Source: Alphaproteobacteria bacterium (lineage in GTDB: Bacteria > Pseudomonadota > Alphaproteobacteria > Bin95). Taken from it: a stretch of DNA of 64,000 nt. Of the stretch, positions 3,285-63,447 are shown in pieces. Location of the stretch: assembly GCA_965205265.1 (NCBI GenBank), contig CBDBGH010000003.1:5216001-5280000 (forward strand), read 5' to 3'. How positions within the stretch are numbered: the first letter of the stretch is position 1; each line of letters opens with the position of its first letter. The notes under the pieces were generated by a model that saw nothing but the letters and a program-made list of their open reading frames with translations, was not told the DNA's origin and ran no database searches. The translations under genes and the position numbers were made by a program.

Positions 3285-3500
3285 TCATGGAAAGTCCGGT
3301 TGCGGGCCGTCGGGGTCGAAATCGGTGACCGCCTGCATTTCGTGGGTCTGCGCAAGACCCAGGGCGGCACGCTTGACGAAATGGCTGGCGGTCACGCCCT
3401 GGTCCGAGGCGGCTGTCGAGAGGCGGTCCCACTCGCTTTGGGTGACATAGACGGGGATCGTCCGGCCTTCCCTGTTGCCGCCGTTTCCCGGCGTTGCCAT
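3285..3500 (-). CDS. Ribbon-helix-helix / MobC-like small DNA-binding protein
   Basis: TIPVYVTQSEWDRLSTAASDQGVTASHFVKRAAL fits the RHH pattern; ends QPDFP. Confidence 0.5.
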   Translation of the reverse strand: MATPGNGGNREGRTIPVYVTQSEWDRLSTAASDQGVTASHFVKRAALGLAQTHEMQAVTDFDPDGPQPDFP

Positions 3501-3535
3501 CAGCCGACGCCGGTGGGCCCCCTTCTTCCGCCCCA

Positions 3536-3772
3536 TTATGGCGTCTCTCCGGCCCTGGCCGAATCCGTCGCGCCGGCGGCCGACTGCATCGCGGCAATGG
3601 CTTCCTGGACAAAATGGCTTAATGGCTGCATGTCGGCTTCGGGTGCCGACCCGCCCGTGCAGATCAGCGTTCTGTCGGGCAGGTGGCCGTTGTGGAGGCC
3701 TTTGGCGACGAGGTTGAGGGCTTTCGCCACCTTGTCCCAGGCTTCGGGTGAAAGGGTCGTTCCCGCACTCAT
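3536..3772 (-). CDS. Hypothetical protein
   Basis: RBS AAGGAG, ATG start, operonic position; ends GETP. Confidence 0.55.
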   Translation of the reverse strand: MSAGTTLSPEAWDKVAKALNLVAKGLHNGHLPDRTLICTGGSAPEADMQPLSHFVQEAIAAMQSAAGATDSARAGETP

Positions 3773-3934
3773 TCGAAATCTCCTTGTGTCGGGTGGTTGA
3801 GGAAAAGCCGGTCGAGAAGGACGCGCGCCGGCAATGTCGGGAGCGTCCGGTTGTTGGTTGTGCTGGTCTTCCGTCGGCTTCTCCGGAGGACCTTCATGCC
3901 GGGAGTGTCTCGAGATCCCGGAGTTCGCGGCCGT

Positions 3935-4351
3935 TCATGTCAGGAGCCCGGCGCGCCCGTGGCCGTCGCCGGGGGCCGGCGTGGCCGTCCAGCCAGGTTC
4001 GACAAGGCCGCCGAGGACGGGCTCCATGTCGTAGAGATGACGTTCACGGAGCGCCTTGAGGCCCGCTTCGGTAAGCCGTACCGGGCGGGCGGCGCGCGCG
4101 CGGTCCCACTCGCCGATGTCGAACCAGTCCTCATGCTGCTGCCAGCGGTTCATGATCTCCATGCCGGTGAGCAGGTCGACGCGCAGCTCGTCGAGGCCCT
4201 CGGGCAGCCGGTCCCTGTTCCAGGGGCTGAACCAGAGCGTGCCGAGGTCGCGCATGCGTTCCATGATCTGCCAGTCCCCGTCGCGGATTGCTCGGGCCCG
4301 TTCGCGGGCGAGGGGGGCGTTGTCGAGGTTTTTCCGTGTCCTTGAGGTCAT
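3935..4351 (-). CDS. Hypothetical protein
   Basis: 138 aa with protein-like composition, operonic position. Confidence 0.6.
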   Translation of the reverse strand: MTSRTRKNLDNAPLARERARAIRDGDWQIMERMRDLGTLWFSPWNRDRLPEGLDELRVDLLTGMEIMNRWQQHEDWFDIGEWDRARAARPVRLTEAGLKALRERHLYDMEPVLGGLVEPGWTATPAPGDGHGRAGLLT

Positions 4352-4362
4352 TGGGCGCCTCG

Positions 4363-4677
4363 CTATCCGGATACCTGCCGGATTGCGGCCGCGATGACCG
4401 CGTCAACGAAGGAATTGTAGATAAAGGGACCGGAACCGATGGCCCCGGCAATGACGAATTTGGAAAGCAGGGGCGGCGGGCGGTCTCCATCGGGCGTCCT
4501 GTAGGCCCTCCATACCGCAACGAAGACGAGGAGGCCCGCGAGCGCAAGGAAGGGAATGTGTCCCGCGAAGGGGATGACCGGAATCGACTGGACCAGAAGG
4601 ATCAGGTCCGGAGGCGGGCAGTCCGGGCAATCGGTGTCCGAAAGCAGCCATGCGGCGATCGAGGCCGGGATGCTCAT
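4363..4677 (-). CDS. Small membrane protein
   Basis: Two hydrophobic segments and a CPDC motif; ATGA overlap with the upstream ORF. Confidence 0.5.
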   Translation of the reverse strand: MSIPASIAAWLLSDTDCPDCPPPDLILLVQSIPVIPFAGHIPFLALAGLLVFVAVWRAYRTPDGDRPPPLLSKFVIAGAIGSGPFIYNSFVDAVIAAAIRQVSG

Positions 4678-8181: not shown

Positions 8182-8931
8182 ATGAAAATGTCGGTGGAGG
8201 AATTCGTGCGTGCCCGGGATAAGGGAAGGCGCGTGTTCGCCGGCGTCGAACTGCCTCCCGGCTCAAGCCTGGCAGGCGAATGCCTGGAGGATGTCATCCT
8301 GGTCGGGGCTGTCCTTCGCGGGGTCGATTTCAGCAGGGCGGATCTCGGCGGCGCCGACCTTACCGGGGCAAATGTGGAAGAGGCGGACTTCAGTGGCGCC
8401 CAGCTGGAGCATGCCGTTCTGCACGGCGTGAGGGCTGCGCAGGCGAGATTCTCGGGCGCCGGCATGCAGGGCGTGCTGATGCGCGGGGCCGATGCGTCCG
8501 GAGCGCGCATGGACAATGTCCGGTTCAGCTACGGGGACCTGTCGGCGATCGCCGACCTGTCCGGGAGCGTGCTGAACGGGGCGGACCTGTCCGACTCGCT
8601 GATGAACGAGGTTTCGTTTCGCGGCGCCAAACTCCAGGATGCGGACCTGACCGGTGCAAGGGCCATGCGGACCCTGTTTGTCGAGGCGGACCTCCGTCAG
8701 GCAAGGCTCGTGGGCGTGACGGGGCAGGCGGCTCTCTTCTTGAAGGCAGATCTGACGGGGGCCAGTCTGGCGCAGGCCCGGCTACCGGACGCGGACTTCG
8801 CGTCGGCGGTGATGAGATACACCAATGTGGATTCCGCCGATCTGCGGGATGCGAAATTCGATAATGCGGCGATGGACGATGCGGTGCGTGCAGCCATCGT
8901 GCAGACAGAACCGGCCGGGCCGGCCCCTTGA
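8182..8931 (+). CDS. Pentapeptide repeat protein
   Basis: A(D/N)L/F-xx repeats; RBS AAGGAGG; ends EPAGPAP. Confidence 0.9.
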   Translation: MKMSVEEFVRARDKGRRVFAGVELPPGSSLAGECLEDVILVGAVLRGVDFSRADLGGADLTGANVEEADFSGAQLEHAVLHGVRAAQARFSGAGMQGVLMRGADASGARMDNVRFSYGDLSAIADLSGSVLNGADLSDSLMNEVSFRGAKLQDADLTGARAMRTLFVEADLRQARLVGVTGQAALFLKADLTGASLAQARLPDADFASAVMRYTNVDSADLRDAKFDNAAMDDAVRAAIVQTEPAGPAP

Positions 8932-15622: not shown

Positions 15623-15698
15623 TGGAAGGCCCGCCGGGACTTGAACCCGGAACCTGGCGGTTAAGAGCCGCCCGCTCTGCCGTTTGAGCTACAGGCCT
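15623..15698 (-). tRNA. tRNA-Lys(CUU)
   Basis: Cloverleaf: acceptor AGGCCTG/CGGGCCT, anticodon arm GGCGG-CT-CTT-AA-CCGCC, T-loop GTTCAAGTC, encoded CCA; discriminator U. Confidence 0.92.
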
Positions 15699-16290: not shown

Positions 16291-17442
16291 ATGGATTCCA
16301 CGCCGATCACGTTGGAGGAAATCCGTGAACTGGTCGCGTCCCGGCAGAGCGGTCGGCGGCTCGACCTGAGGGGGCGTGACCTCTCAGGCCTGGACCTCTC
16401 GGGTTTTGCTCTCGGGGCCGTCGATCTGAAATTCTGCAATGCCGCCGGAACGAGGTTCGACGGTGCGGAGCTGACCGGCTCGGACTGGGAGGGAACGGAT
16501 CTGAAGGGGGCGAGCTTCAGAAATGCGGGCTTGAGCGGGGCCTTCTTCAGCATGAACGGGGAGCTTTCCGAGGTCGATTTCACTGGAGCCATGCTGCGCG
16601 AGGCTCACTTCTACGATTGCAGCATGGAGAATATCGATTTCACGAACGCCGACCTTTCAGGTGCGGACTTCCATTCGGTAACGGCGCAGAGCGTGATCTT
16701 CGACGGCGCGGATCTCCGGAACATCGAGCGGACCGACGCCAGTGTCCCGTTCCCTGCCATGAACTGGCGGAAGGCGGAAACCCGGGCGGCCGCCAACCTT
16801 CTGGCCCTGGTCGAGGACTATGGCAGGGAGGCGGAGAAGGCGCACCCGGCCCAGGTTGAGATATCGCTCGAGCAACTCAATGGTGCCTTGGCCGAGGTCA
16901 TGGAGCGCGCCCGGGAGCGGAGCAGGGAGGCGCAGCAGGCTCGTGCGGCGCTCCATGTCCGTGTCTTGAACGGCGAGCGCCGGTTTGCAGGAGAACGATT
17001 CGAGTTCATGACCCTGACGGACCTCGACCTGTCGGGTTGTGACTTCTCGGGCTGCTCCTTCCGGGGGAGCCGACTGTCGGGGTCCGACCTGTCCGGGGCC
17101 ATCCTGAAAGATACCTTCCTGCTGGACGCCGTCTTCAACGGGGCCAAGTGCAGGAAGACCGACTTCACGTCCGCGTCGGCGACCATGGCGAGCTTCCTGG
17201 GCGCGGACATGAGGGAGGCGGTGCTGCGGCAGGCCTCCCTCGACAATGCCGACTTCCGGGGCGCCTGGCTCGAGGACACGGATTTCTCCGGGGCGGAAGG
17301 CAGGAACATCGATTTCCGGGAGGCGCACATGGGGGCAGACGAATGGGAGGGGGCGGAGATTGCCGGCCCGATCCTGCGCAGCCCGCGGACGGGTCCGGAG
17401 GCCGCTCCTGAAGACGCGGTGGCGGCTGGCCCCGCGCCATGA
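16291..17442 (+). CDS. Pentapeptide repeat protein with two repeat blocks
   Basis: Two pentapeptide arrays joined by a helical linker; ends AAGPAP. Confidence 0.9.
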   Translation: MDSTPITLEEIRELVASRQSGRRLDLRGRDLSGLDLSGFALGAVDLKFCNAAGTRFDGAELTGSDWEGTDLKGASFRNAGLSGAFFSMNGELSEVDFTGAMLREAHFYDCSMENIDFTNADLSGADFHSVTAQSVIFDGADLRNIERTDASVPFPAMNWRKAETRAAANLLALVEDYGREAEKAHPAQVEISLEQLNGALAEVMERARERSREAQQARAALHVRVLNGERRFAGERFEFMTLTDLDLSGCDFSGCSFRGSRLSGSDLSGAILKDTFLLDAVFNGAKCRKTDFTSASATMASFLGADMREAVLRQASLDNADFRGAWLEDTDFSGAEGRNIDFREAHMGADEWEGAEIAGPILRSPRTGPEAAPEDAVAAGPAP

Positions 17443-19089: not shown

Positions 19090-19092
19090 TAG
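17971..19092 (+). CDS. IS630 transposase
   Basis: HTH; [29 protein letters not shown]. Confidence 0.95.
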
Positions 19093-20140: not shown

Positions 20141-21373
20141 ATGGAGTTGAAGCCGATATCGCAGCAGGAGCTGGAGGACCGGCTCGGCAGCCAGCGCTGG
20201 CCAGCCGACGTGCCGGACGCCGACGGCAACAACCTGCTGCACCGGGCGGCGGGACTCGGCGATCTGCGGAGTCTGGAGCTGCTTCTGGAGCCGAAGGGGC
20301 AAGGCAATCCCTGGCTGGTCAACGCCAGGGGAGAGACGCCCATGGCGCTGGCCGCTGCGGGTGGGCACGCCGACGCGATCAGGCTTCTTCTGGAAGCGGG
20401 GGTGCCTTCGTATGGAGCGGACAAGGCCGGGCGGAGCCCGTTGCACAGGGCTGCGGAAGCCGGCGCCGCCCATGCCGTGTCGGTTCTTCTGGAGGCCGGG
20501 GCCGCGGTTGACCCCGCCGACAAGCGCGGCCGGACACCCCTTCTCCTGGCTGTGTCCGCGGGGCATGAGAAGGTCGCGCGCCGCCTGCATCGCGCCGGGG
20601 CCGATCCTTGCCGGGAAGGCGGCTGGCTCGGCATGACGCCGCTTCATGAAGCGGTCCGCCTCAACCTCTCAAGTCTGGCCGGCAGCTTCATCGTCCAAGG
20701 GGAGAGAGCGAGCCCGCGCGATGCCTGGGGCCGGACGCCGCTTCATCTCGCCGCCCAGCGCGGGAATCGCGAGGCGTGCGTCACGCTGATCGCGCTGGGA
20801 GCGGATGTCGATACGCAGGACAGGAACGGCAATACGCCCCTGCACAGCGCGTGCCGGGGGGAGTTGCACGGAAACACCGACGCCAAGGAGCGGGGGGACA
20901 TCGTGCATCTTCTTGTCGATGGCGGCGCAGCCGACCCGAATATAGCCAATCAGGACGGGCAGACGGCCCTGCATTGGGCCGCGGCCGAGATGTTTACGGA
21001 AAGCCTGAAGAACTTGCTGGATGCTGACGGGGATCCGAACCTGCTCGACCAGAACAGACATACGCCGTTCCGTTGGGTGGTGATGAGCGGATATCCGGAT
21101 CTGGTCTCGATGGTGCTCAGCGCCGGCGCCGATCCGGATATGCGGGATATCCGGGGAGAGACGTCCCTGCACTGGGCGGCCCGACAGGGGTTCGGCGATG
21201 TGGTGGGGGTGCTACTCAAGGCCCGGGCGGATCCGCACGTCCTGAACAGGGACGGGCAGAGTCCCTTCGATCTCGCGAGTGAATGTCGGGGGGCGGACGG
21301 AACGCTGGACCACTATAACCTGCTGAAGGAGGCACAGGCTCCGGCCGGCGGAGATCTCCCGGAACCGGCCTAG
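20141..21373 (+). CDS. Ankyrin repeat protein
   Basis: Many G-x-TPLH-x-AA repeats; ends DLPEPA. Confidence 0.93.
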   Translation: MELKPISQQELEDRLGSQRWPADVPDADGNNLLHRAAGLGDLRSLELLLEPKGQGNPWLVNARGETPMALAAAGGHADAIRLLLEAGVPSYGADKAGRSPLHRAAEAGAAHAVSVLLEAGAAVDPADKRGRTPLLLAVSAGHEKVARRLHRAGADPCREGGWLGMTPLHEAVRLNLSSLAGSFIVQGERASPRDAWGRTPLHLAAQRGNREACVTLIALGADVDTQDRNGNTPLHSACRGELHGNTDAKERGDIVHLLVDGGAADPNIANQDGQTALHWAAAEMFTESLKNLLDADGDPNLLDQNRHTPFRWVVMSGYPDLVSMVLSAGADPDMRDIRGETSLHWAARQGFGDVVGVLLKARADPHVLNRDGQSPFDLASECRGADGTLDHYNLLKEAQAPAGGDLPEPA

Positions 21374-21374
21374 A

Positions 21375-22355
21375 TCAGCAGGGGGTCGGGGCTTCAGGGC
21401 TGTCTGCGGAAGGCACATCGTCGAGCTTCGCCCCGCTCAGCTTGGCCATGTGAAGCTGATGGGCGAACCTGGTATTGGCGCCGCGCAGGTCCGCATCGAC
21501 GAAAAAGGCCTCCCCGCAGCTCGCATAGGCGAGACTGGCGTGAAGCAGGACGGCTCCGGAAAAGTCGGCGCCGGCGAGATTGGCCTTGTCGAGCGAGGCC
21601 CGTGTGAGGTCCGTCCGGGCCAGACAGGCGTCGGAGAAATCGACCTCGCCGAGAACGGCCCGGGCCATCGAGGCCCTCTCGAGATCCGCACTCACAAAAT
21701 TCGCGAACAGGAGAGTCGTCCGGCCGAGAGACGCCCCGCGCAAGCTGGCGTTCGTGAAGGAAGAGCCGTTGGCGACGGCGTCGCGCAGGCAGGCCTCATT
21801 GAGATTTGCACCCTCGAAATTACACCGCCACAGCTCGGCATCCTCCAGCGAAGCCCGACGGAGGAAGGCGTGTTTGAACGAGGTTTCCACACATATGGCC
21901 CCGTTCATCTGGGCTCCTGTGAAGTCGGCTCCTTCGCATTCGCAGTCCGTGAGGATCACGGAACTCATATACGCCCCGCGGAAACTCGCGCCCTTGAAGG
22001 AGGCGCCGGTGAGGTCGAGATGCTGCAGAAACTGCCCGGAGAAGTCCTGGCCGTCGAAATTGCGTTCGCCGGCGGCGTAGCGGGCGCCGAGTTCGGCTTG
22101 GGACGGCCCGCGCCGGGAGGCGAGGATGTCGCCTGGGCGACGTTCCACGAGCCGGTCGGGCGCCGGGACGTGGATGTTGTCTTCGTGTATCTCAAGGACG
22201 TAGGGATTCCCGGCGTCCCCGTCTTTCCAGCTATCGCGGTAGTCGCAGAGAGCGACGGCCTTCTCGAAGCCGCGGTCGACATCGTCCGCCTCAACCTCGA
22301 CCTCGGCGCTATAGGACCTCGTGTAGGCGAGTGCGAACGTCCAGGTTTTGGTCAT
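21375..22355 (-). CDS. Pentapeptide repeat protein with conserved N-terminal domain (tandem copy 6)
   Basis: N-terminal TWTFAL...VEVEAD, RYAAGERNF, repeats; ends PEAPTPC. Confidence 0.9.
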   Translation of the reverse strand: MTKTWTFALAYTRSYSAEVEVEADDVDRGFEKAVALCDYRDSWKDGDAGNPYVLEIHEDNIHVPAPDRLVERRPGDILASRRGPSQAELGARYAAGERNFDGQDFSGQFLQHLDLTGASFKGASFRGAYMSSVILTDCECEGADFTGAQMNGAICVETSFKHAFLRRASLEDAELWRCNFEGANLNEACLRDAVANGSSFTNASLRGASLGRTTLLFANFVSADLERASMARAVLGEVDFSDACLARTDLTRASLDKANLAGADFSGAVLLHASLAYASCGEAFFVDADLRGANTRFAHQLHMAKLSGAKLDDVPSADSPEAPTPC

Positions 22356-22374
22356 GGCAGTGAACTCCTCTCCG

Positions 22375-23343: not shown

Positions 23344-23352
23344 GCGCTCCGG

Positions 23353-45845: not shown

Positions 45846-46544
45846 TCATGGTGGCGCGGTCTCGGGCGCCTGCGCTTCGGCGATCATGGCGGCGAGCCCT
45901 TCGCGGTCAGCGCCGACCGCGCGCCTGGCGGCCTGGGCGATGAATTCCGGCGTGCAGAGCGGGAGCACGGCCGAGGCCGCAAGCGGGGTTTCGGGGCCAT
46001 CCGGGTTCTGGAGGTCGAGTATTTCGGCCACGAGCGGGGCGTCCCGCCCTCCGGGCCTGTCGAGGCGCCACATTTCGCGGGCGCCGACCATGCGCCAGAC
46101 ATCGGGCCTGTCCCCGTCGCCCCAGACACGCTCGACATCCACAACGAGCGTAGGCGGGTGGCAGTCGGCGAAGGCGATTCCCGCCTCGGGACCCTTGTCG
46201 GCCCTGTTGGCCCAACCGTCGGCGTCCCCGCCGACATAGAAGCAGCAGTCGGCTTCCCAGCCGCTGTCCTTCGGGTCGTGCGTGCGCCGCCAGCGCGTCC
46301 GCCCGAGCGCCACCAGGCGCAGGCCGCAGGCGCGGGCGATCTCGTGGGCCACCGTGTCGGCCCCGCGGGCGTGGATTTCGTGGTCGAGCGAGGGGGACAT
46401 AAGCTCGACGAATCCGGTGTCCGGGTCGAGAAACACACGCGGCGCGGACCGGTTCCAGTCGGCCTTCGCCAGATCGGGAATCTCCTGCCAGTGGAATTGC
46501 AGCCGGATGACGCTGGATCCCATGCGTCCGGTGCATGCAGCCAT
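45846..46544 (-). CDS. Uma2-family PD-(D/E)xK endonuclease
   Basis: ELMSPSLDHE, EADCCFYV, PPTLVVDV, GAREMWRLD; ends ETAPP. Confidence 0.8.
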   Translation of the reverse strand: MAACTGRMGSSVIRLQFHWQEIPDLAKADWNRSAPRVFLDPDTGFVELMSPSLDHEIHARGADTVAHEIARACGLRLVALGRTRWRRTHDPKDSGWEADCCFYVGGDADGWANRADKGPEAGIAFADCHPPTLVVDVERVWGDGDRPDVWRMVGAREMWRLDRPGGRDAPLVAEILDLQNPDGPETPLAASAVLPLCTPEFIAQAARRAVGADREGLAAMIAEAQAPETAPP

Positions 46545-46819: not shown

Positions 46820-47152
46820 GTGGCGGCACGGCGTTCGAGCGGAATTCTGGGAGGCCCCTCATCGAACTGGGAGACCAGGCTTCCGAAAATCAGGCGATAC
46901 CTGCTGCACCGGGAGCCCGTGGATTTCGGCCCGCGCTGGATGTGCTCCTGCGGGCACACGATGCGCGTTCTCTGGCGGCAGGCCTGGTATTGCCGGCGCT
47001 GCGGGCGCTGGTTGCACGACCGGGCTGTGGCCGCCCGGGCGCGGGAACTCGGGGAGGACCCGCGCGGCGGCGTGGCGGCATTTTCACGGATCGGTGGTAA
47101 TCAGCGCGGTGCGTCATCGACGGACCGGGAAGGAAGAGCGGCATGTCAGTAG
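46820..47152 (+). CDS. Possible Zn-ribbon protein
   Basis: CSCG...CRRCG; RBS GGAG. Confidence 0.4.
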   Translation: MAARRSSGILGGPSSNWETRLPKIRRYLLHREPVDFGPRWMCSCGHTMRVLWRQAWYCRRCGRWLHDRAVAARARELGEDPRGGVAAFSRIGGNQRGASSTDREGRAACQ

Positions 47153-47817
47153 GCCAGCCCGGCTACTACGCCTACGAGGCGTCCTGCCATTGCGTGGACT
47201 GCGCCCGCGAGCGCTTTGGCGAGGCCCTCGACAACGGCACGGCAACGGATATCGAGGGCAATTCGGTCGGCGTCGGCTTCGATACCGACGAACGCGACTC
47301 CCCGGCCAGCTGCAACGAGTGCTCGGAGTTCATCCTCACGAGCCTGACCGACACGGGTGAGGACTTCGTGGTCGACGCCATTCTCCGCAACCGGGGCCGC
47401 CCGGAAGTGCTCGCGCAATGGCGCGAGGAGTTCGACTGGCTGGAGGAGCGCATCCGCAACGCAATCTGCGAGGCGGAATTCGAGACGGTCGCCGATGGCG
47501 GCGACGGCCAGTATGACAACAGCGACTATTTCAGCGGGGTCGCCGGCTTCGTCAGCGCGATGACGGAACAGGACCTCCCGGAACCGGACGGGCTGGGCGA
47601 CGCGGACTGGGGCCATGAAGCCCTGGAAGAGGCGATCGGGGATGCCAACGACATCCTGAGGGAGGCGGGCGTCGACCGGATCATTTCCTGGCACGGACAC
47701 CTGCCCGGCGTTCTCATGGCCGGGTCGGGGAGGGCGTGGGACGCCGCGTCCGACCTGCCGGCGGTGCAAGGCAAGGCGGAACCGCCGCCCGGGCACGACG
47801 GGATGGAAGGGCCGTAG
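47143..47817 (+). CDS. Acidic hypothetical protein with CxxC motifs
   Basis: HCVDC and CNEC; ends DGMEGP. Confidence 0.7.
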   Translation: MSVGQPGYYAYEASCHCVDCARERFGEALDNGTATDIEGNSVGVGFDTDERDSPASCNECSEFILTSLTDTGEDFVVDAILRNRGRPEVLAQWREEFDWLEERIRNAICEAEFETVADGGDGQYDNSDYFSGVAGFVSAMTEQDLPEPDGLGDADWGHEALEEAIGDANDILREAGVDRIISWHGHLPGVLMAGSGRAWDAASDLPAVQGKAEPPPGHDGMEGP

Positions 47818-47834: not shown

Positions 47835-48065
47835 ATGAGCGGCGACGGACATATCTACAAGGCAATGCTGCGGCCTGTCGCGCTCTGGACGCTGCCCATG
47901 GACATCCGGGAGTGGCGCTATGTGCATAGGCCGGAAAGCCTGGAGGGCGGCCGGTACGGCGTCATTGCACTGCCCAGGGCCCTGGACGAGGACGAGCGGT
48001 CCCGGTTCGGGTTGGAACCTGTTGCCGCCGGCCCCGGGACGCCGGACGGCATGGACGGTCCTTAG
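47835..48065 (+). CDS. DarA C-terminal-like small protein
   Basis: Y...LRP....TLP...RYGVI...RALDEDE..RFGLEPV resembles the DarA_C pattern; ends DGMDGP. Confidence 0.5.
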   Translation: MSGDGHIYKAMLRPVALWTLPMDIREWRYVHRPESLEGGRYGVIALPRALDEDERSRFGLEPVAAGPGTPDGMDGP

Positions 48066-48497: not shown

Positions 48498-48878
48498 ATG
48501 CCGATACGGACAAACCGCAGCTTCAACCCGGCCGCCGGCCGTTACGTGTACGATTTCGGGTCCTGTTCGATCGCCAACGGCTATGCGCAGATCGATACCG
48601 GTCAGGATGCTCCCTACTACGGTGCCTGGTGTTCACCCTCGGAACGCAAGCTCGTCAACTATTGCGAAGGCGATGTGGTCGAGACGATCTGCGACACGGA
48701 CGAGGAGTTCGTCCAGGCCGTGCGCGAATTCGCGTCATGGACGAATGAGGCGGGCTGGGGGCCTGCGAGGATCGACCCGGGGCTGGACCCGGAGTTCGCG
48801 GAGTGCTTCCGGGCTCTCGGTCTGGGGGACCTGCTGCACGGCGAGCCGGACACCGGACCGGGTCCCGATGGCCCGTAG
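48498..48878 (+). CDS. Hypothetical plasmid/phage-type protein
   Basis: RYVYDF...GYAQIDTGQDAPYYG.W...YCEGDV...CDTDEEFV; ends GPDGP. Confidence 0.75.
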   Translation: MPIRTNRSFNPAAGRYVYDFGSCSIANGYAQIDTGQDAPYYGAWCSPSERKLVNYCEGDVVETICDTDEEFVQAVREFASWTNEAGWGPARIDPGLDPEFAECFRALGLGDLLHGEPDTGPGPDGP

Positions 48879-48948: not shown

Positions 48949-49833
48949 ATGGTGAGTGCCTTCATCTGCAACGAGACGCATATCGCAACCTGCGCGAATC
49001 TCATTGGCGAGACCCTTTCGCATCTCGGGAACATGACCCCCAGGGGTATTGCCGCGCAGCTTGCGGAGCAAAACCTGGCGAGTGTCCGGTTCCGGTATGG
49101 AGAGGACGCCGTCGGCAGAATGTTGCCTGAGAGTGCCGAAGGCGATGGTACGCGGTATGTGGAGCGTTGTCGTACCGCCGCCGCGCTGCCATGCAGTGCC
49201 GCGGAAGGTTATGGCTATCTGACCTGCCTCGATTACCAGAGCTGCGAACATCCCGGATGGAACGCGAGCAATGCCCGCAGATGGATCTGCGAGGCCCGCG
49301 ATGCGCTGGTCGTCGCAATGAGGGAGGAACTCCTCGCCGGGCGGGAGGTATGGGAAACCGATGGAACTCCGAAGCCTCTCCCGGAACCATTCCTGTGCAA
49401 CCCGGTGCATATTGCGACCTGCGCGGCGAACCTGAAGGAGGCGGACATTTTCGCTTTCCGGAATCTGTTCGTCGACGGGGTTGCCGAGGCGCTCGGCCGC
49501 GCCAACATGGCGGCGCTGGGCCTGGGCGGTGCCGGTGAGGAGGCCGAGGACGGCGATGTTCTGCCGAACGGCATGACCGCGGCGCAATACCTGCATGAGT
49601 GTCGCACAGCAGCGCCGGCAAAGGCAGGACCCGCCGACATCTACAACTTCCTCTGCTGCTTGCGGGAGCAGTGCGGCGGCGTCGGAAACACCAAAGCCGT
49701 GCGCTGGATCGACGAGGGGCTGGGCCGACAGGAATGGAATCTGCACAAAGCCCTGGTGGGCGGCGCCCATGTATGGGAAGCCCCGCACGGCGATGCGGAA
49801 ACGGAACCGGTGCAATCGGCGCCGACGCCCTGA
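48949..49833 (+). CDS. Hypothetical protein with internally duplicated domain
   Basis: SAFICNETHIATCA...CLDYQSCEHPGW, second copy FLCNPVHIATCA; ends SAPTP. Confidence 0.75.
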   Translation: MVSAFICNETHIATCANLIGETLSHLGNMTPRGIAAQLAEQNLASVRFRYGEDAVGRMLPESAEGDGTRYVERCRTAAALPCSAAEGYGYLTCLDYQSCEHPGWNASNARRWICEARDALVVAMREELLAGREVWETDGTPKPLPEPFLCNPVHIATCAANLKEADIFAFRNLFVDGVAEALGRANMAALGLGGAGEEAEDGDVLPNGMTAAQYLHECRTAAPAKAGPADIYNFLCCLREQCGGVGNTKAVRWIDEGLGRQEWNLHKALVGGAHVWEAPHGDAETEPVQSAPTP

Positions 49834-49883
49834 GAACCAGGAAACGGCCTGCGCTGCGCCGCGAAGCACGGAAGGAGACGGCC

Positions 49884-50828
49884 ATGAGCGCCTTCATCTG
49901 CAACGAGACGCATATCGCGACCTGCGCGGAGATCGTCCGGACCCTGGGGCCGGCCGAGGTCCGGGAGATGGAACGCGGCGACATCGCAGCCGTCCTCGCC
50001 CTGGAGAACATGAAGAGCGTCGCCTTCCGCTATGGCCCGGAAGGTCAGGAGATCTACGACAGAATGATGGCTCCGATGATCGGGCAGGGCTTCACGGTGC
50101 TCAGGGGCGGGCCCGCCGAAGAGGATCCGCTGTCGGAAATGCTGCCGGGCGGGCAGACGGGGCGGGAATATGCCGCGTCCTGCCGTCTTGCCCGGCCGAT
50201 CGTCGAATACAGCCCGGCCGAAGCCCATGCCTGGCTGTCCTGTCTCGAGTACCAGAGCTGCGAGCATCCAGGGTGGGAGGGCTGCGAGGCGCGCGCCTGG
50301 ATCCATGCCGTCCAGCATGGTCTTGCCCTCCGGATCAGGGACGGGCTGCTGGGTGGGCGGGAGGTCCGGGATATCGGGGGAAAGCCGCTGCATCATGGAC
50401 AGGTCGTGCTGTGCAGGGAGGTGCATATGGCGACCTGTGCATCGATCCTGGAGCATTGCGGCCTGTATGTCCTGATGGACCGGTCGTATGGGGATATCCT
50501 GGAAGGGCTCGTCGAGGCGAACCTCAATGCGCTCGAGGCCGAAGGGATGGGCATGGCGCAGAGCAACCGTCGCAGGCATCGCATGAGGTGCCGCGTGGCC
50601 GGGCCGGTCGATACCAGCCCGCTGGAGGCCCATGCCCTTTTGAGCTGCGTGCGCGACAATTGCCGAGCGGATCCCGGGCCGGAGCAGACCCCGGTCGCGG
50701 AGTGGCTGGATGACGGGTTGCTTTCGATAGCCAAGGAGATGAGGCGGGAGGCGCTTGGCGGGCGGCATGTCTGGGAGGCGCCGGAACTGCTTGACTCGCC
50801 CGATGCCGGAGAGGCACCCTCGCCGTAG
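49884..50828 (+). CDS. Paralog of 48949..49833
   Basis: MSAFICNETHIATCA...CLEYQSCEHPGW; ends EAPSP. Confidence 0.75.
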   Translation: MSAFICNETHIATCAEIVRTLGPAEVREMERGDIAAVLALENMKSVAFRYGPEGQEIYDRMMAPMIGQGFTVLRGGPAEEDPLSEMLPGGQTGREYAASCRLARPIVEYSPAEAHAWLSCLEYQSCEHPGWEGCEARAWIHAVQHGLALRIRDGLLGGREVRDIGGKPLHHGQVVLCREVHMATCASILEHCGLYVLMDRSYGDILEGLVEANLNALEAEGMGMAQSNRRRHRMRCRVAGPVDTSPLEAHALLSCVRDNCRADPGPEQTPVAEWLDDGLLSIAKEMRREALGGRHVWEAPELLDSPDAGEAPSP

Positions 50829-53519: not shown

Positions 53520-54248
53520 TCAAGGCGACGGAGACGGCAGCGCCTCTTCCGGGGCTTCACGGACGGGGGGAGCGATTTCCATGCCGATTTCATCGCGGAG
53601 AGCGGCCTCGGCCTGCTCCCAGCCGTAGAAGGGACCCCAGAGCTCCGTCTCGCCGCTCTCCGGCAAGGAGCGTTCGCCGTCCAGCGTCCACCTCTCGACA
53701 GCCATGCTGTACACATGGCCGTTGGCCCACTCGCTGAATTCGTCGAGAATGGCGTTGCAGGACGAGAAATACTCCTTGCGGGCCTCGTCTTCGCCGATTG
53801 CCGCGCTGCGCTCCAGGAACCTCTCGTAGAGGTCGGCGGGCGGCGTGTAGAGGCCCGCAGTCCCGACGTCCCAGTCGTGTCCGGGATAGCGCATCGTGCC
53901 GGTCAGGGAATAGTGGACCGCGCCGTGGCTGTATCGTTGCACAACCAGGGGCCTCGGCGTCTGGAGGGCCGCTTCCTTCAGGGTCTCGCGCACATCCTCG
54001 TTTCGGGTGAACTCATGGAACGCGCCGGGTTCGCCGTGGTCCCAGAATGAACCGTAATCGTTGTCGAGCAGCACATACCCGACTATCAGCGCGTTGCCCT
54101 CCGGGGAAGGCCGGACGAGCAGGTCGTCCCTGAAGTCCGATGAATTCGAATAGTCGACCGGTTCGTGCTCGGTCAGGCAGCGGACGCCGGAGGGAAGATC
54201 GACACCCCAGTGCCGCTGGATGATGTCCGTAATGTCCTTGCGCGCCAT
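53520..54248 (-). CDS. Hypothetical phage/plasmid-type protein
   Basis: YSHG..HYS...WDVG, EWANGHVY, GPFYG; ends LPSPSP. Confidence 0.7.
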   Translation of the reverse strand: MARKDITDIIQRHWGVDLPSGVRCLTEHEPVDYSNSSDFRDDLLVRPSPEGNALIVGYVLLDNDYGSFWDHGEPGAFHEFTRNEDVRETLKEAALQTPRPLVVQRYSHGAVHYSLTGTMRYPGHDWDVGTAGLYTPPADLYERFLERSAAIGEDEARKEYFSSCNAILDEFSEWANGHVYSMAVERWTLDGERSLPESGETELWGPFYGWEQAEAALRDEIGMEIAPPVREAPEEALPSPSP

Positions 54249-55102: not shown

Positions 55103-55996
55103 ATGTCCACGCGCTCGGTGATCTGCGGAATGACGCCCGACGGGCCGAAAGTGAACTTCATCAACTACGATGGCTACCCGGAGTTCCCGGGCGTCGGTTC
55201 CAAACTGCTCACCTTCTACGGAGGTCCGGAGTCGGCCAGGGAACTGCTTGAGCTGGGCGATATGGTGTCCCTGGGAAAGACCCCGGAGGACTGCGAAATC
55301 CCGGAGGAATGGCGTCGGGACGGCAGTGCGGCGTACCCGGTCGATGACAGGCCGGACGAGGCGCTCAGGGACACGCTGATGCGAGCCATGGCGGGCGACA
55401 GCGGATTGCCGATCAAATGGGGCTATGTATTCGAGAACGGCCGCTGGGACTGCATCGCGTCGCCGCACTATGAGAAGGAGTGGAACGGGGTCCCGCTCGA
55501 GCAGCTGGCCCGGGACGGGCTGGAATACAAGACCATCTCGCAATTTGCCGTGATTGCCGGCATGACCGATGACGGTCCCGCCGTCATCTGGATCCACGGT
55601 CGGGGCATTCCCGAAGCGCCCGGCCTGGGCCGGACGCTGCTCGAACGCTATGGCGACGCCGGGGCCGTGAAGGAGCTTCTTGCGGGCGGCGATCTGAATG
55701 CGCTGGGAACGACGCCGGAGGAGAATGCGGAGTTCAGCAGGCGCAAGGACGACCTTCCCACGATGCTGGAGGTCCGGGAGGCCTCCACCGGTGTCCTGGC
55801 CGATACCGTCATGGAAACGGTGAAGAGTGAATGGATCGGGTCGGGCGTGACCTGGGCCTATCTCTTCAACGAGGACGGCGTCTGGGAGTGCTGCCAGGCG
55901 CCATGGTTCGCGCGGGAGTGGGAAGGGGCGCCGCTGGAGGATGTCGTGGCGGCCAGGGAAGCGGAGAAGGAAGCGGAGGACGCGCCGACGCCATGA
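55103..55996 (+). CDS. Hypothetical protein with two copies of an STRS..DGYP domain
   Basis: MSTRSVICG...YDGYPE..G..L..Y...LLELGD..SLG...WGYVF, repeated twice; ends DAPTP. Confidence 0.75.
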   Translation: MSTRSVICGMTPDGPKVNFINYDGYPEFPGVGSKLLTFYGGPESARELLELGDMVSLGKTPEDCEIPEEWRRDGSAAYPVDDRPDEALRDTLMRAMAGDSGLPIKWGYVFENGRWDCIASPHYEKEWNGVPLEQLARDGLEYKTISQFAVIAGMTDDGPAVIWIHGRGIPEAPGLGRTLLERYGDAGAVKELLAGGDLNALGTTPEENAEFSRRKDDLPTMLEVREASTGVLADTVMETVKSEWIGSGVTWAYLFNEDGVWECCQAPWFAREWEGAPLEDVVAAREAEKEAEDAPTP

Positions 55997-57634: not shown

Positions 57635-58669
57635 ATGGATTTTGCATCCGCATCGGTTTCCGAACTGCGAGCATGGCTTGACGCCGGCGGAGATCCCAAC
57701 GAAAGGGATGATGGGAATTCCACGCCCCTTCACAGCGTTGTAGCCGCCGGCAGCATCGAGGCCGCGCGTTTGCTGCTCGGGGCCGGGGCGGACCCCGATA
57801 TGCGGAACCGCAGCATGGACGCACCGCTTCACCTGGCGGCAAGGGAAGGGAACCCGGACATGGTCCGGATTCTTCTGGAGGCCGGCGCCGATCCGGAGGC
57901 CGGCCTCCAGAAGAATCTGGTCGATGGCCCGGCCGGATATACGCCGCTCCATATGGCGGCCTCCAGGGGCGACACGGAGGTGATCGAGCTGCTGCACCGC
58001 GCGGGAGCCGGTATCGAACACCGCGACGGCATCGGACGCGATGTCGACTGCACCCCCTTGCAGGTCGCGGCGCAGGCGAACAGGGTCGGCGCCGTGCGGA
58101 TGCTGCTGGCTCTCGGAGCGGACCCGGACGTCAGGGACGATTTCGCGCATACGCCGCTGCACTGGGCGGCCCTCGAAGGCCGCAACGACGTTCTCGGCTG
58201 CCTGCTCGAGGCCGGGGCGGACCCGGATCCGCGGGCGGCGGGAGGCGGGACACCCCTCCTCTCCGCCGCACAGACGGGCAATGCGGACGGCGTGCGGCTG
58301 CTTCTTCATGCGGGCGCCGATCCCGGCGCCCGGACCCGTTCCGGCATAGCCCCGCTGCACCTTGCGGCGGAATACGGCGCCCCGGAATATGTCGAATGCG
58401 TGCGGGCCCTGCTGGACGCGGGGGCCGACCCGGTCCTTGCCGACGACAACGGGCGCACGGCCCTGCATGCCGCGGCGGTCCGGAGCATCCCCGAGGTGGC
58501 CGTCCTTCTTCTGAAGGCAGGGGCCGATCCGGCATTCAGGGACAAGGAGGGCGTGTCGGCGCTCGACGAGGCCCGCGGGTTGGTTACCAGACATGGGATA
58601 CCGGAACCGGGACGAAGGATTCTGGAAGCGCTTGAACAGGCGACAGGGCCGGCCGGCCCCGGAATGTGA
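57635..58669 (+). CDS. Ankyrin repeat protein
   Basis: Repeated TPLH..A..G....V..LL.AGADP; ends GPAGPGM. Confidence 0.93.
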   Translation: MDFASASVSELRAWLDAGGDPNERDDGNSTPLHSVVAAGSIEAARLLLGAGADPDMRNRSMDAPLHLAAREGNPDMVRILLEAGADPEAGLQKNLVDGPAGYTPLHMAASRGDTEVIELLHRAGAGIEHRDGIGRDVDCTPLQVAAQANRVGAVRMLLALGADPDVRDDFAHTPLHWAALEGRNDVLGCLLEAGADPDPRAAGGGTPLLSAAQTGNADGVRLLLHAGADPGARTRSGIAPLHLAAEYGAPEYVECVRALLDAGADPVLADDNGRTALHAAAVRSIPEVAVLLLKAGADPAFRDKEGVSALDEARGLVTRHGIPEPGRRILEALEQATGPAGPGM

Positions 58670-60429: not shown

Positions 60430-60711
60430 ATGACTGACCGGGTATTCATCGCCCGGCGGCCGGATGGCAGCATGTCGCCGATCTGGTGGCGGCGCGAGCC
60501 GGACCAGAGCCGCCTCGGGAAGAAGGTCGACTACCGGCCTTTCGTCCGCGAGGAACTGGCGGACGGATTGTTCGAGGCGCTCCAGGCACTGGCCAGCACC
60601 CCCGGCGTCCAGATCGGCATGAGCGCCTACGCGGCGCCCAAGACGGTCGAGAAGGTCAATGCGGCCCTCGCGGCATACAGCAAAAGCAGAAGCCGGCCGC
60701 CGGAGCCTTGA
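60430..60711 (+). CDS. Hypothetical protein
   Basis: ATG with RBS; ends RPPEP. Confidence 0.5.
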   Translation: MTDRVFIARRPDGSMSPIWWRREPDQSRLGKKVDYRPFVREELADGLFEALQALASTPGVQIGMSAYAAPKTVEKVNAALAAYSKSRSRPPEP

Positions 60712-60724
60712 ACGGCTCCGTCGT

Positions 60725-61558
60725 CTAGGGGCCGCCCGGCCCGGACACGGCCGGAGACTCGCGGCTCTCCGGAGAAAGCAGGGCGCCGTCCGCAAGACGT
60801 TCGATCACACCGCCGGCGCCGCCGGTATGGGCGGCGACCGTGTGCGGGCCGGGCTCGGCCGCGTACCACGCCACCGCGCCACCGGGCCAGACCGGCTTGT
60901 CCGCCCTGTAGATCAGATAGCCCGGTGCTCCGGTTTCACTCTTGCGGACCGGAGTGCTGCCGGCGCCAACCACAACGTCAGCCGTGAGCCGGGCCACCAA
61001 TTCGTCACCGACATGGACGCTGGCGCCTTCCAGGGTCGGCAGTGGATCGCCTGGTTCCCAGGACCCGGCGTAATCCCTGGGATGCGTGTCATGGAGATCG
61101 CCGGAGATGGCGGCAGCCAGGGCCGCGGTGTCCTCCAGCACGGCATTCGGCAGGCGTGTCGTCCACCGGGTGCCATCCGCCTCGACGACCGTGGCGGCGG
61201 TCTCGGCTGCATAGCGGTCATACTCCGCCTGGGGCGCGCCCAGGAACAGCCATCCGCCGAGATCCGGTCTCCAGGTCAGGCGGGAGAGAGCGTTCTGCTC
61301 GGCTTCACCCACCCCTCCGACATCCAGAATTACCGGAGCAGCAAAAAGCATCTCGCCGGCGGCTGAGGGTTCGCCGCCGGGGTCGTAAGGGGCGACATCC
61401 ATGTCGGGACAGCTCCAGAGACTGCCGATATCGAGCGGACGGCAAAGCCAGTTGGCCTGGCGGAACGCCGCCCGCATGGAGTCATCGGAGATCGTGACCA
61501 GAAATGCATCGCCGTCCCCGGCGTCCAGAATTACGTCCGGATACCTCCGTGCCCTCAT
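60725..61558 (-). CDS. Hypothetical protein
   Basis: 277-aa acidic ORF with RBS; ends GPGGP. Confidence 0.65.
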   Translation of the reverse strand: MRARRYPDVILDAGDGDAFLVTISDDSMRAAFRQANWLCRPLDIGSLWSCPDMDVAPYDPGGEPSAAGEMLFAAPVILDVGGVGEAEQNALSRLTWRPDLGGWLFLGAPQAEYDRYAAETAATVVEADGTRWTTRLPNAVLEDTAALAAAISGDLHDTHPRDYAGSWEPGDPLPTLEGASVHVGDELVARLTADVVVGAGSTPVRKSETGAPGYLIYRADKPVWPGGAVAWYAAEPGPHTVAAHTGGAGGVIERLADGALLSPESRESPAVSGPGGP

Positions 61559-61708
61559 TTCCTGTACCCCCTTCGGAACCAGTTCCCTGACAATACCCGT
61601 GTTCGCTGAAAATTCCCTTCACATGCCGCGTCGGTGCCCGGTCATGTGGATGGGTCCGTGCCTCCGTTGTTGCGGCGCAAGACCGTTCCGGATTTTCAGG
61701 GAAGTGCG

Positions 61709-62830
61709 CTAGTGTCCTGATTCTGAAGTTTTGATGATTTTCATCTGGCGTTCGGCAGTTTCCAGCGTCCGCAGACAGAAGCGCTTGATGGTGGCAAGGA
61801 TGTCGTCGGCGGATTTGGTCCAGCGGAAGGGTCGCGGGTCGGCGTTGACGGTGTCGATGTAGTTCCGGATGGCCTGCTCGAGTTCCTGGGGCGAGCGATG
61901 AACCCCGCGCCTGAGCTGTTTCTCGGTCAAGAGTGCGAAGAAGCGCTCGACCTGGTTGAGCCAGGAGGCGCCGGTGGGCGTGAAGTGGACATGCCAGCGG
62001 GGATGCCGGGCCAGCCAACGCCGGACGGCGGGCGTCTTGTGGGTTGCGTAGTTGTCCATCACCAGATGGACGTCGAGTTCGCCGGGGACCTGGGCTTCGA
62101 GCGTGCGCAGGAACTTGAGGAACTCCCGGCTGCGGTGGCGCGGCAAGCACTGGCCGATGACCCGGCCGGTGGCGATGTCCAGCGCCGCGAACAGCGTGGT
62201 GGTGCCATGGCGCGTGTAGTCATGAGTACGCCGCTCGACCTGACCCGGCCGCATGGGAAGCAGCGGGCGGGAGCGGTCCAGAGCTTGGATCTGGCTCTTC
62301 TCATCGACGCAGAGCACCAGCGCGCGCTCGGGCGGGTCGAGATAGAGGCCGACAATGTCCCGCACCTTCTCCACAAACAGTGGGTCCGACGACAGCTTGA
62401 ACGTCTCCGAGCGATGCGGCTGCAGGCCGAAAGCCTGCCAGATGCGATGGATCGTCGAGGGCGCATAGCCTGCAGCGCGCGCCATCGAGCGCAGGCTCCA
62501 ATGCGTGCCGTCGGGGGGTGTTTCTTCCAGGGTGCGGGCAATGACCTCCGCAACCTCCTCGTCACCGATCTTGCGCGGAGCGCCCGGGCGCGGCTCGTCA
62601 TAGAGCCCGTCAAGCCCGCGCTCGGCAAAACGCCGCCGCCATTTGCCGACCGTATTCGCATCCGCTCCCAAGCGCGCAACTATCGCCTTGTTCTCCAGAC
62701 CCTCAGCAGCAGCCAGGACAATCCGAGCCCGACGCGCCAGTCCCTGCGCCGTCTTCCGACGCCGCGCCAAACCCTCCAACTCTCGTCGTTCTGCTGCCGA
62801 CAAAGTAATCGCGACCGCTGCTCTCCCCAC
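61709..62830 (-). CDS. IS630 transposase
   Basis: Identical to 17971..19092. Confidence 0.95.
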
Positions 62831-62889
62831 CGGTCAGCCCTCCATCAAAACCGATAATCTTATTCTAATAAACTTCTCGATCAGGATAC
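61712..62889 (-). mobile_element. IS630-family element, copy 2
   Basis: Same length and ends as copy 1, opposite orientation, TA at 61710 and 62890; the internal ORF translations are identical. Confidence 0.95.
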
Positions 62890-62946
62890 TAGATAGAATT
62901 TCTCGAAACGACGATGAATCGCGCAGTCGCGGTGAAAGGAGGGGCG

Positions 62947-63447
62947 ATGGGGACCAGAGCGCTGATCTGCGGCCGGACCGCTGAGGGGCCGCGGGCAATC
63001 CATGTCGGCTTTGACGGGGACCCGGAAGCCGCGGGGCTGCTCCTCGAGGAACATTACGCCACCCCGGAGGCCGTGGAGGAGCTTCTCGAGCTCGGGAACC
63101 TCCGGAGGCTCGGGGCGGTCCCGACCCTGTGCGAGCAGGCCAGCAGCCCGCAAGCCCTTCTGGTGAACATGGTCGATGACAATGCCTATGTGGGCGAGAG
63201 CCTCGTGTCGGCCATCAACGGCGGGGGAGCGCCCGGAGCTGCGTCCTTCGATATCGACTGGGCCTATGCGTTCGAGGACGGGTTCTGGGAGTGCATGCCC
63301 GGACCGTACGGCGCCACGCGCTGGGAAGGCATGTCCATCGACCAGGGAGTGGAAATGGTCCGTCAGGAACGGGACGATGCCGAAGCCGAAAACATGATGG
63401 CGATGGAATCCAACGAGGATGACCTGCCGTCGCCGGCACCGTGCTGA
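62947..63447 (+). CDS. Single-domain paralog of 55103..55996
   Basis: MGTRALICG...DGDPE..G..L..HY...LLELG.L..LG...WAYAF; ends LPSPAPC. Confidence 0.75.
   Translation: MGTRALICGRTAEGPRAIHVGFDGDPEAAGLLLEEHYATPEAVEELLELGNLRRLGAVPTLCEQASSPQALLVNMVDDNAYVGESLVSAINGGGAPGAASFDIDWAYAFEDGFWECMPGPYGATRWEGMSIDQGVEMVRQERDDAEAENMMAMESNEDDLPSPAPC

Follow-up and report, generated by a model that had tools for sequence, protein, structure and literature searches.

Why do so many apparently unrelated proteins encoded in one stretch of DNA end in proline? The question was raised by a window of 64,000 nucleotides (C3:5216001-5280000) of the chromosome of an alphaproteobacterial genome assembly (GCA_965205265.1; contig CBDBGH010000003.1, here C3), for which it had originally been predicted that a C-terminal proline tail marks a large set of cargo proteins for sorting. 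We found that the window lies within a chromosomal island of ~584 kb in which about a quarter of the native proteins, about 110-160 in number, carry an acidic, proline-capped tail at their free C-terminus, and that the same island encodes a type IVB secretion system (T4BSS). Judged from sequence comparisons, the tail may well be a new, proline-capped variant of a T4BSS translocation signal marking more than 100 cargo proteins.

Proline-ending proteins in the window and in the island

The genome (5.70 Mb) consists of the chromosome C3 (5.46 Mb, GC 0.682) and two small replicons, C1 (193 kb, GC 0.657) and C2 (43 kb). The GC content of the window ranged from 0.61 to 0.70 and yielded 342 open reading frames (ORFs) of at least 80 amino acids (aa), so that raw ORF lists were useless; genes were therefore called with a purpose-written codon-usage log-likelihood caller, trained on 560 long ORFs with high GC at third codon positions and then retrained on the island. 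Which residue comes last is independent of the start chosen for a gene, because only the frame and the stop set it.

The claimed excess of C-terminal proline was confirmed, since 21 of the 62 window genes called with the island-retrained model ended in proline, compared with 293/3958 (7.4%) in the chromosome (binomial p 1.7e-9 against a background of 0.074). The corresponding figures were 14/44 with the chromosome-trained model, 9/24 for genes with a caller score of at least 50, and 14/44 when BLAST families were counted (p 2e-6). All the examples listed in the original prediction were recovered with the exception of 'GETP (3536)', as position 3536 marks the beginning, and not a second stop, of the minus-strand gene 3285-3536, and one proline-ending gene, 42763-43398 (ending MANP), was missing from that list. 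The genes named there as tail-less, encoding class II ribonucleotide reductase (RNR), ThyX, GCS2/YbdK, RecD2, the integrase and the insertion sequence (IS) copies, were recognised by Pfam and their gene ends indeed lacked the tail.

In 100-kb and 20-kb bins, the tail-rich region extended from ~4.74 to ~5.32 Mb (C3 ~4.737-5.321 Mb). Proline was the last residue of 105 of the 497 island proteins, and Pro-x-Pro directly before the stop was found in 47/497, compared with 22/3958 in the rest of the chromosome and 0/109 on the plasmids (22/4068 elsewhere in the genome). Within the last 8 residues, Pro-x-Pro was present in 107/497 island proteins and 112/4068 proteins elsewhere (Fisher 2e-48); the first 10 residues showed no such excess (12/497 and 123/4068, respectively). 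A tail classifier was then defined as at least two Pro and no Lys or Arg in the last 8 residues, with at least one Asp or Glu in the last 12. It was positive for 110/511 island proteins and 143/4054 elsewhere (odds ratio 7.5, p 3e-42), and for 109 of the 444 island proteins remaining without near-identical multicopy genes. Control replicons were compared with one cruder gene caller and the same classifier, which gave 65/519 tails in the island, 11/433 and 9/439 in two 580-kb pieces of the chromosome, 1/46 on C2 and 0/25 in an adjoining F-type transfer cluster; the excess persisted in the GC-matched comparison with C1 (2/174). A second hotspot of proline ends, at C3 4400000-4500000 (21/85), had ordinary basic or hydrophobic ends, of which 2/21 passed the classifier, and appears to be random variation that has nothing to do with the motif of the island.

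The possibility was considered that the tail is a neutral by-product of a foreign high-GC composition, of read-through into GC-rich spacers or of descent within expanded families. High GC favours CCN codons, 13.6% of the uncalled island ORFs end in Pro, and three paralogue families, pentapeptide-repeat (45 members, tailed and untailed), DUF6878 (27) and ankyrin (25), contribute 17, 13 and 8 of the 105 proline-ending proteins. The claim that the tail is carried by unrelated proteins has to be qualified for these 38; even so, the 497 proteins fell into 307 BLAST families, 57 of which contain at least one proline-ending member, 40 of the 264 singleton families end in Pro, and the family-weighted frequency of proline ends was 16.5%. 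Composition also argues against a neutral origin, because the overall Pro content of the island (5.65%) equals that of the chromosome (5.54%), the GC-matched plasmid is at background, and putting the last 12 residues of every protein in random order (2000 shuffles) gave 9.6 +/- 3.0 Pro-x-Pro ends, with a maximum of 21, against the 47 observed. Read-through and spurious ORFs were ruled out by the 5959 uncalled island ORFs, which contained 17% Arg and had Pro-x-Pro-stop in 1.8%, whereas the tails had 5% Arg and 18% Asp+Glu.

Anatomy and chemistry of the tail

Proline peaked at positions -1 (21%) and -3 (22%) of the island proteins, position -2 being Gly, Ala, Ser, Glu or Thr. Pro-x-Pro reached a density of 9.5% directly before the stop and of 2-5% where one to five residues followed, and fell to a background of 0.5% by ~16 residues; in the chromosome it was flat, about 0.5%. 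Many near variants were the same motif followed by one to few residues, such as LPEPG(x), LPSPAPC and LPEPSPFD. Because the tail proteins were defined by Pro, only their other features count as independent tests. Asp and Glu made up 15-29% of the residues at -4 to -13, Lys and Arg 2-7% of the last 8 positions (chromosome, 13-15%), and hydrophobic residues 7-14% (chromosome, 18-30%), and the net charge of the last 20 residues was -1.9 compared with 0.0 (p 9e-24). In the chemistry of their ends, the motif-less proteins of the island resembled chromosomal proteins. Alanine, the commonest last residue in the chromosome (20%), was replaced by Pro in the island. An N-terminal hydrophobic run was found in 0/122 tail proteins and in 15/389 others, and in the AlphaFold2 (AF2) model of the F17-family protein encoded at window positions 49884-50828, residues 300-314 of 314 had a predicted local distance difference test (pLDDT) value below 50. 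The label can be described as a disordered, acidic, Pro-rich stretch of ~12-15 residues ending in Pro-x-Pro-COOH (x = S, A, E, G, T, Q) or close variants.

A translational effect, in which Pro before the stop slows termination and so tunes expression or couples packed neighbour genes, would have a precedent, because C-terminal Pro-Pro hampers termination and triggers ssrA tagging in E. coli (YbeL-PP; PMC3834316, in its available text). As in that case, the island proteins have Pro in the last sense codon; moreover, 24 of the 105 use CCA, many of them as CCA-TGA, able to overlap a downstream ATG, and the tail genes are clustered (45 adjacent pairs compared with 28.9 expected). However, Pro-Pro-stop, the strongest staller, is rare in the island (5/497) and Pro-x-Pro-stop dominates (47/497), Pro-x-Pro followed by 1-5 further residues is also enriched, stop-codon usage is ordinary, and neither the conserved Pro at -3 nor the acidic stretch of 12-15 residues is accounted for by the stalling model as the available text of PMC3834316 presents it. 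We consider this explanation quite improbable.

It is extremely improbable that a DNA or RNA feature at the gene ends, such as a repeat, an attC- or repetitive extragenic palindrome-like site or a hairpin across the stop, is simply read as Pro codons. Several stops lie, by eye, between short GC-rich inverted repeats, but the Pro codons vary (CCG 42, CCC 30, CCA 24, CCT 9) and stop usage is that of the island average. A hairpin or terminator across the stop was rejected, the minimum free energy of 48 nt being alike for Pro-x-Pro (-15.4 kcal/mol), Pro-end (-14.6), other (-14.3) and chromosomal genes (-14.8 to -15.0; Mann-Whitney p 0.22-0.96), and so was a shared DNA cassette, since 11 of 12403 pairs of tail genes shared DNA around the stop, most of them duplicates.

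Conservation of the tail

Sequence comparison indicates that the tail is under selection. The alignment of 16 DUF6878 paralogues (22-38% identity) had just three invariant columns, W89, G94 and a Pro of the terminal cap (P248, in a reference row ending at 250); W89 and G94 sit in the DUF6878 fold, and an xPAPx...PxP stretch of 12-15 residues closes nearly all 16 proteins. The six homologues of the F17 family (36-52% identical), which are from the present genome, a 17,516-bp ENA contig and a 302,850-bp ENA contig, all end in [AL]P[STA]P after divergent acidic linkers, while distant single-domain homologues from other lineages (metagenome-assembled genomes of several phyla) stop right after the domain, with no tail. 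Among the last 25 columns of the 224-aa protein encoded at 47143-47817 and its two metagenomic orthologues (63-66% identical), the terminal Glu-Gly-Pro was the only invariant part.

The tails were also found to be additions relative to host copies. The chromosomal Uma2 copy lacks the tail, and six of the six island Uma2-family copies have 7-15 extra acidic, Pro-rich residues beyond the chromosomal end (ALIAERL); chromosomal DnaB ends in DDEPPS and its island paralogue in TRGPPP. When 102 island proteins were aligned to the end with a chromosomal or plasmid homologue, 19 ended in Pro compared with 4 of the homologues. Sorted by kinship to the host, tails were present in 111/388 island-only proteins, in 10/31 with a homologue below 50% identity, in 1/35 host-like paralogues (50-95%) and in 0/57 IS genes or duplicates. 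Among orthologues and paralogues at 22-66% identity the tail thus persists even as the linker diverges, and distant homologues and chromosomal paralogues do without it. Such additions, and a terminal-cap Pro that is one of three invariant columns among the DUF6878 paralogues, speak further against a neutral by-product, which we regard as very improbable.

A DUF6878 profile search of 1.84 billion representatives returned 2107 relatives. Among the foreign matches in the best 150 (n=130), tails were present in 12/30 in the top 50 and in 4/100 at ranks 50-150, a ranking biased by the tail columns of the profile, because tailed matches score higher by construction. According to these matches, foreign tail-bearing homologues exist and most of the wider family is tail-less; a literature search on DUF6878 found no paper naming the family. 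The F17 protein was present in 0/40 relatives. Genome contigs searched with the F17 alignment gave 15 distant loci, the neighbourhoods of which had tails at background level (11/272); metagenome contigs gave no loci with query P0017 and one remote match with alignment A3.

A type IVB secretion system encoded in the island

The search for a type IV secretion system (T4SS) and a coupling protein elsewhere on the contig was successful, and it placed both in the island itself. At the left end of the island we found genes for IcmL/DotI (4763036-4763692; NCBIfam 191 bits, cut-off 175; Pfam E 3e-42), DotH/IcmK (4762080-4762874; E 1e-41) and an IcmE/DotG-TraO-like protein (4760749-4762080), together with PilS/bundlin-type (type IVb) pilins, two T2SSE ATPases and a VirB4-like ATPase of 1022 aa with a weak TraC/VirB4 match; the VirB4 family PF03135 had no match in the genome. 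A DotL/TrbC-like coupling ATPase of 1163 aa is encoded in mid-island (C3 4924915-4928406) and is followed directly by the gene for a DotM/IcmP-like protein of 591 aa (4928484-4930259; DotM_C 102 bits, cut-off 27), and a DotA/TraY gene is located at 4933183-4935660 (258 bits, cut-off 100). A gene for an M48-like peptidase (weak match) was found near the T4BSS genes.

The genome therefore contains, as Dot/Icm export does, a T4BSS with a DotL/DotM coupling complex. By its TraO-, TrbC- and TraY-type NCBIfam matches, its PilS/bundlin pilins and its two T2SSE ATPases, the island also has the core apparatus and type IVb thin pilus of a mating-pair formation class I (MPF-I) system. Such systems have a cognate relaxase in the element, whereas no relaxase of the four Pfam families searched (PF03432, PF07514, PF08751 and PF03389) was found within 4.74-5.32 Mb, the nearest TrwC being at 4730561 in the adjoining F-type cluster; the conjugative role of the island is a prediction from its genes.

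The DotM-like protein is ~200 residues longer than Legionella DotM and has a strongly charged C-terminal extension in which seven Asp follow one another. Extensions of this kind, long and charged, are also present at the C-termini of its two closest relatives.

DotM as candidate reader of the tail

Because the same island encodes a type IVB secretion/conjugation system, the tail is likeliest to be the export label of that machine, a reading to which we give about even chances. In the mechanism that we propose, the island's own type IVB system would read the tail: the DotM/DotL-like coupling complex would be bound by the acidic stretch, by analogy with the Glu-rich signals on Legionella DotM, and the role of the Pro-x-Pro cap would be to hold the end in an extended, exopeptidase-resistant state or to add a second contact. 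The labelled cargo would comprise pentapeptide-repeat, ankyrin and DUF6878 paralogues, Uma2 nucleases, DnaB, DciA and many orphans.

The DotM of Legionella, a member of the DotL-DotM-DotN coupling complex, recognises acidic, Glu-rich peptides from the C-termini of effectors with dissociation constants of 0.2-0.7 uM through R196/197, R217 and R314/315, and peptides in which Glu is balanced by Lys are not bound (Meir et al. 2018, PMC5802825, available text). These E-block signals are net-acidic, rich in Glu and of low pI, with few Lys and Arg. The island tail resembles them in being C-terminal and unstructured, in part also in its net acidity and few basic residues, and in being carried by more than 100 unrelated proteins, ankyrin-repeat proteins included. 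Dot/Icm signals occupy the last ~20-30 residues and are unstructured; both the Pro-x-Pro excess and the charge bias of the island lie within the last ~15. The T4S signals known so far are exposed, flexible stretches in which Glu, Ser, Thr and Pro are overrepresented, with Glu enriched at 9-19 and depleted at 1-4 (PMC3915618, main text as available); the Asp/Glu enrichment at -4 to -13 overlaps that profile in part and shows no depletion at -4. Aligned with the solved DotM (E 1e-11), the island DotM has Arg at the R217 and R314/R315 positions, and the R314 equivalent was Arg in 8/8 members of its clade. On the other hand, the island tail has a strict Pro-x-Pro (or Gly-Pro) free end, a feature not known from Legionella, and its setting differs from Legionella in the 5.7 Mb, 68% GC host genome and in a DotM of 591 aa that has a long charged extension and lies below the NCBIfam equivalog cut-off. 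A complex prediction for DotM-like residues 195-470 with residues 275-314 of the F17 tail scored 0.00; it was run without controls and is evidence neither way.

The distribution of this DotM was narrow. Its type was found in 0/36 other genomes of the order (only 1 of 37 species), and DotM_C in 27/400 sampled genomes of the class (28/401 with one unpublished genome), the others being of 1.1-4.1 Mb with a more canonical DotM. The nearest relatives were metagenomic (72% identity, on a 302,850-bp ENA contig, then 60% on an ENA contig of 188,107 bp, 55% on an NCBI contig of 138,020 bp and 54% on a JGI contig of 46,364 bp), followed by proteins at 35-39%, two of them labelled by their sources as Pseudosulfitobacter and Paracoccus. 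The DotM query found no related loci in genome contigs, and homologues in plasmid searches reached 26-32% identity at most. The DotM orthologue at 72% identity and one of the tailed F17 homologues are both from ENA contigs listed at 302,850 bp. On a Roseomonas plasmid of high GC that carries a T4BSS (DotM 27% identical), the classifier found tails at background (4/167); therefore, with few relatives compared, the tail convention appears to be tied to the DotM clade of the island and not to T4BSSs or high GC in general.

Weighing of the proposed export label

The original guess of a sorting signal is thus supported, circumstantially, by the T4BSS in the island, by an acidic chemistry broadly similar to that of Dot/Icm signals and by selection on the tail. 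Packaging or timed turnover, which the original prediction also named, may still be its role; no phage structural genes were seen, although no search aimed at them was made. Several points weigh against an export label. The tagged DnaB and DciA look like proteins of the donor cell. The tail is Pro-rich, with moderate mixed Asp/Glu interleaved with Pro, Ala and Gly, and does not have the Glu runs of Legionella, and a literature search, in which the supplementary position tables of PMC3915618 were not covered, found no T4SS signal with a terminal Pro cap. Scores for NCBIfam DotM, DotG, DotA-equivalog and TrbC were under the equivalog cut-offs, and IcmS/IcmW/DotN-type adaptors were not found among the neighbour genes tried. 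In the putative reader, the R217 equivalent is kept in 2/8 and the R315 equivalent in 5/8 clade members, and R196/197 falls outside the alignment of the island DotM. That the foreign DotM and F17 proteins share a single contig follows solely from the equal listed size, and the raw counts of proline ends are inflated by paralogy (three families giving 38/105).

Could the tail instead be a docking or stability tag that is read by a non-secretory factor? It would then be a degron or anti-degron for timed turnover, or a short linear motif bound by a common hub that the island encodes (a chaperone, an adaptor or a protease, for example), and its Pro end would block exopeptidases and the recognition of C-terminal degrons. 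We find this proposal rather doubtful. A tag of this kind would agree with a conserved motif anchored to the free C-terminus, with its presence on proteins expected inside the cell (DnaB, DciA), with the replacement of Ala (20% of chromosomal ends) by Pro, and with the M48-like peptidase gene near the T4BSS genes. However, the coupling proteins of the T4BSS are the sole candidate readers identified, a simple protease-blocking cap needs no acidic, Lys/Arg-free stretch of ~13 residues, and the restriction of the tail to an island that bears a T4BSS would be left as a coincidence.

If the tail is an export label, the target could be a recipient bacterium or a eukaryotic host. The IncI-like thin pilus and the replication and nuclease cargo favour recipient bacteria, and the ankyrin expansion together with the lack of an in-island relaxase of the families searched favours a eukaryotic host. 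Sog primase of IncI1 plasmids is a protein that is co-transferred by the conjugation system. By a bolder and, in our opinion, unlikely extension, the giant element would inject an 'establishment proteome' of more than 100 tailed proteins into recipients before its 584 kb of DNA or together with it; this set would contain DNA-mimic-type pentapeptide proteins, ankyrins, Uma2 and the DnaB/DciA helicase-loader pair, and the cap would be a second recognition element of the DotM clade, orthogonal to the other T4SSs of the host.

Protein co-transfer by conjugation has been described as the F-plasmid 'conjutome', the transfer signals of which are positively charged or hydrophobic (PMC8406263; PMC11288057, both in their available text). 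There too, the T4SS of a mobile element delivers many element-encoded proteins through C-terminal or internal signals. The system of the island looks IncI-like (TrbC-, TraO- and TraY-type matches, PilS-type pilins). As far as the available text of these papers goes, the island differs in its acidic, Pro-capped tail and in a tagged set about 10 times larger. Its replication and anti-restriction-style cargo would fit establishment in a recipient.

T4SS substrate signals are notoriously fuzzy, and effectors are usually found singly or by machine learning. The island motif is sharp, countable and anchored to the free C-terminus, with the rest of the genome at background. Should the export label be correct, it would provide a substrate-recognition rule for the DotM clade outside the Legionellales and a list of more than 100 candidate substrates, and housekeeping-type proteins (DnaB, DciA, nucleases) would have been made cargo by the addition of 7-15 residues. 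It would also bear on the question of whether new hosts receive large sets of proteins from giant conjugative elements.

Tail-bearing genes of the window

The proteins of the window that have tails or near variants of them are shown in Table 1. Pfam Uma2 matched three sister copies of the Uma2 paralogue but not the window copy itself (45846-46523).

Table 1. Window genes encoding proteins with a proline tail or a near-variant tail (positions in the window)
Position	Strand	Protein	C-terminal end	Remark
3285..3536	-	83-aa ORF	...PQPDFP	weak gene call, score 10.3
8194..8931	+	pentapeptide-repeat protein	...EPAGPAP	
16291..17442	+	pentapeptide-repeat protein	...AAGPAP	
20141..21373	+	ankyrin-repeat protein	...DLPEPA	near variant
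21375..22385	-	pentapeptide family F0 member	...EAPTPC	near variant; assigned by BLAST family
23353..24375	-	pentapeptide-repeat protein	...LPEPTP	
24395..25432	-	pentapeptide-repeat protein	...AAAPAP	
25446..26459	-	pentapeptide-repeat protein	...SLPSTP	
26519..27544	-	pentapeptide-repeat protein	...IEDASP	
38597..40228	+	island DnaB paralogue	...TRGPPP	44% identical to chromosomal copy
41305..42111	-	pentapeptide-repeat protein	...GIAPTP	
42293..42760	-	DciA-domain protein	...NPDMAP	
42763..43398	-	211-aa protein	...KPMANP	no Pfam family; basic residue at -5, not acidic type
45846..46523	-	Uma2 paralogue family F8 member	...APETAPP	7 residues longer than tail-less chromosomal copy
47143..47817	+	224-aa Cys-rich protein	...DGMEGP	
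47835..48065	+	76-aa ORF	...DGMDGP	
48498..48878	+	126-aa protein	...GPGPDGP	
48949..49833	+	F17 two-domain helical protein	...QSAPTP	
49884..50828	+	F17 two-domain helical protein	...GEAPSP	
53520..54248	-	242-aa protein	...LPSPSP	no Pfam family
55130..55996	+	288-aa BLAST family F2 member	...EAEDAPTP	ankyrin by other members
57770..58669	+	ankyrin-repeat protein	...GPAGPGM	near variant
60430..60711	+	93-aa ORF	...SRPPEP	
60725..61558	-	277-aa protein	...SGPGGP	
62914..63447	+	177-aa F2-family protein	...DDLPSPAPC	near variant

Six tandem pentapeptide-repeat paralogues of 322-345 aa occupy positions 21375-27544 of the minus strand and belong to the 45-member family spread over the island. The sole chromosomal relative of this family is a protein of 160 aa, so that the expansion of this DNA-mimic-type fold is very large. 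For the orphan family F17 (window 48949-50828), AF2 confidently predicted two domains, both all-helical (mean pLDDT 83.6). The motif CLxYQSCE is invariant in this family, and a Foldseek comparison of the model with the PDB gave no match at E <= 0.001.

Extent and setting of the island

The GC content of the island (0.65-0.69 by bin, 0.665 overall) was lower than in other chromosome bins (0.68-0.70), and so was the host-codon score per codon (0.17-0.21 compared with about 0.28). That the island was horizontally acquired is, in our view, a plausible part of the best explanation of the tail. It is flanked by direct repeats of 2.2 kb (C3 4734317-4736483 and 5320871-5323045, 99.6% identical), each a unit encoding two tyrosine integrases. 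The integrase pair occurs at five chromosomal places in both orientations (also at ~3.51, 5.16 and 5.35 Mb), and the flanking repeats may be a mobile integrase pair or may offer an excision route by recombination.

Just outside the left repeat is the F-type transfer cluster (C3 4716856-4737038, GC 0.72), with TraN, TraF, TraH, TraG_N, a TraD-type coupling protein and a TrwC relaxase. The chromosome has 9 TrwC relaxase matches and therefore carries many integrated conjugative elements.

The island also encodes HipA, a topoisomerase III-type enzyme (Topoisom_bac and Toprim domains), a DnaG-type primase and methyltransferases. CRISPR-associated genes were found at C3 5045981-5052738 and 5127293-5130463, comprising a GSU0054/GSU0053/Cas3-like (type I) set and a Cas9-like protein of 1056 aa with RuvC_III, HNH and Cas9 alpha lobe domains; a 780-aa HNH protein of the same BLAST family is encoded at 5084427-5086769. 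The island is dense in IS elements, with a BLAST family of 9 full-length copies of 551 aa and genes of 501, 261 and 292 aa that recur as sets. In the window, two identical IS-type genes of 320 aa lie in inverted orientation at 18130-19092 (+) and 61709-62671 (-), with another 100% copy at C3 923297, and a lone tRNA-Lys (CTT) gene is located at 15623-15698 on the minus strand. Finally, second copies of DnaB (44% identical), class II RNR (74%) and others (60-90%) are present in the island, and such housekeeping-type copies are probably the cause of the marker-gene 'contamination' of 7.28% recorded for this three-contig genome.

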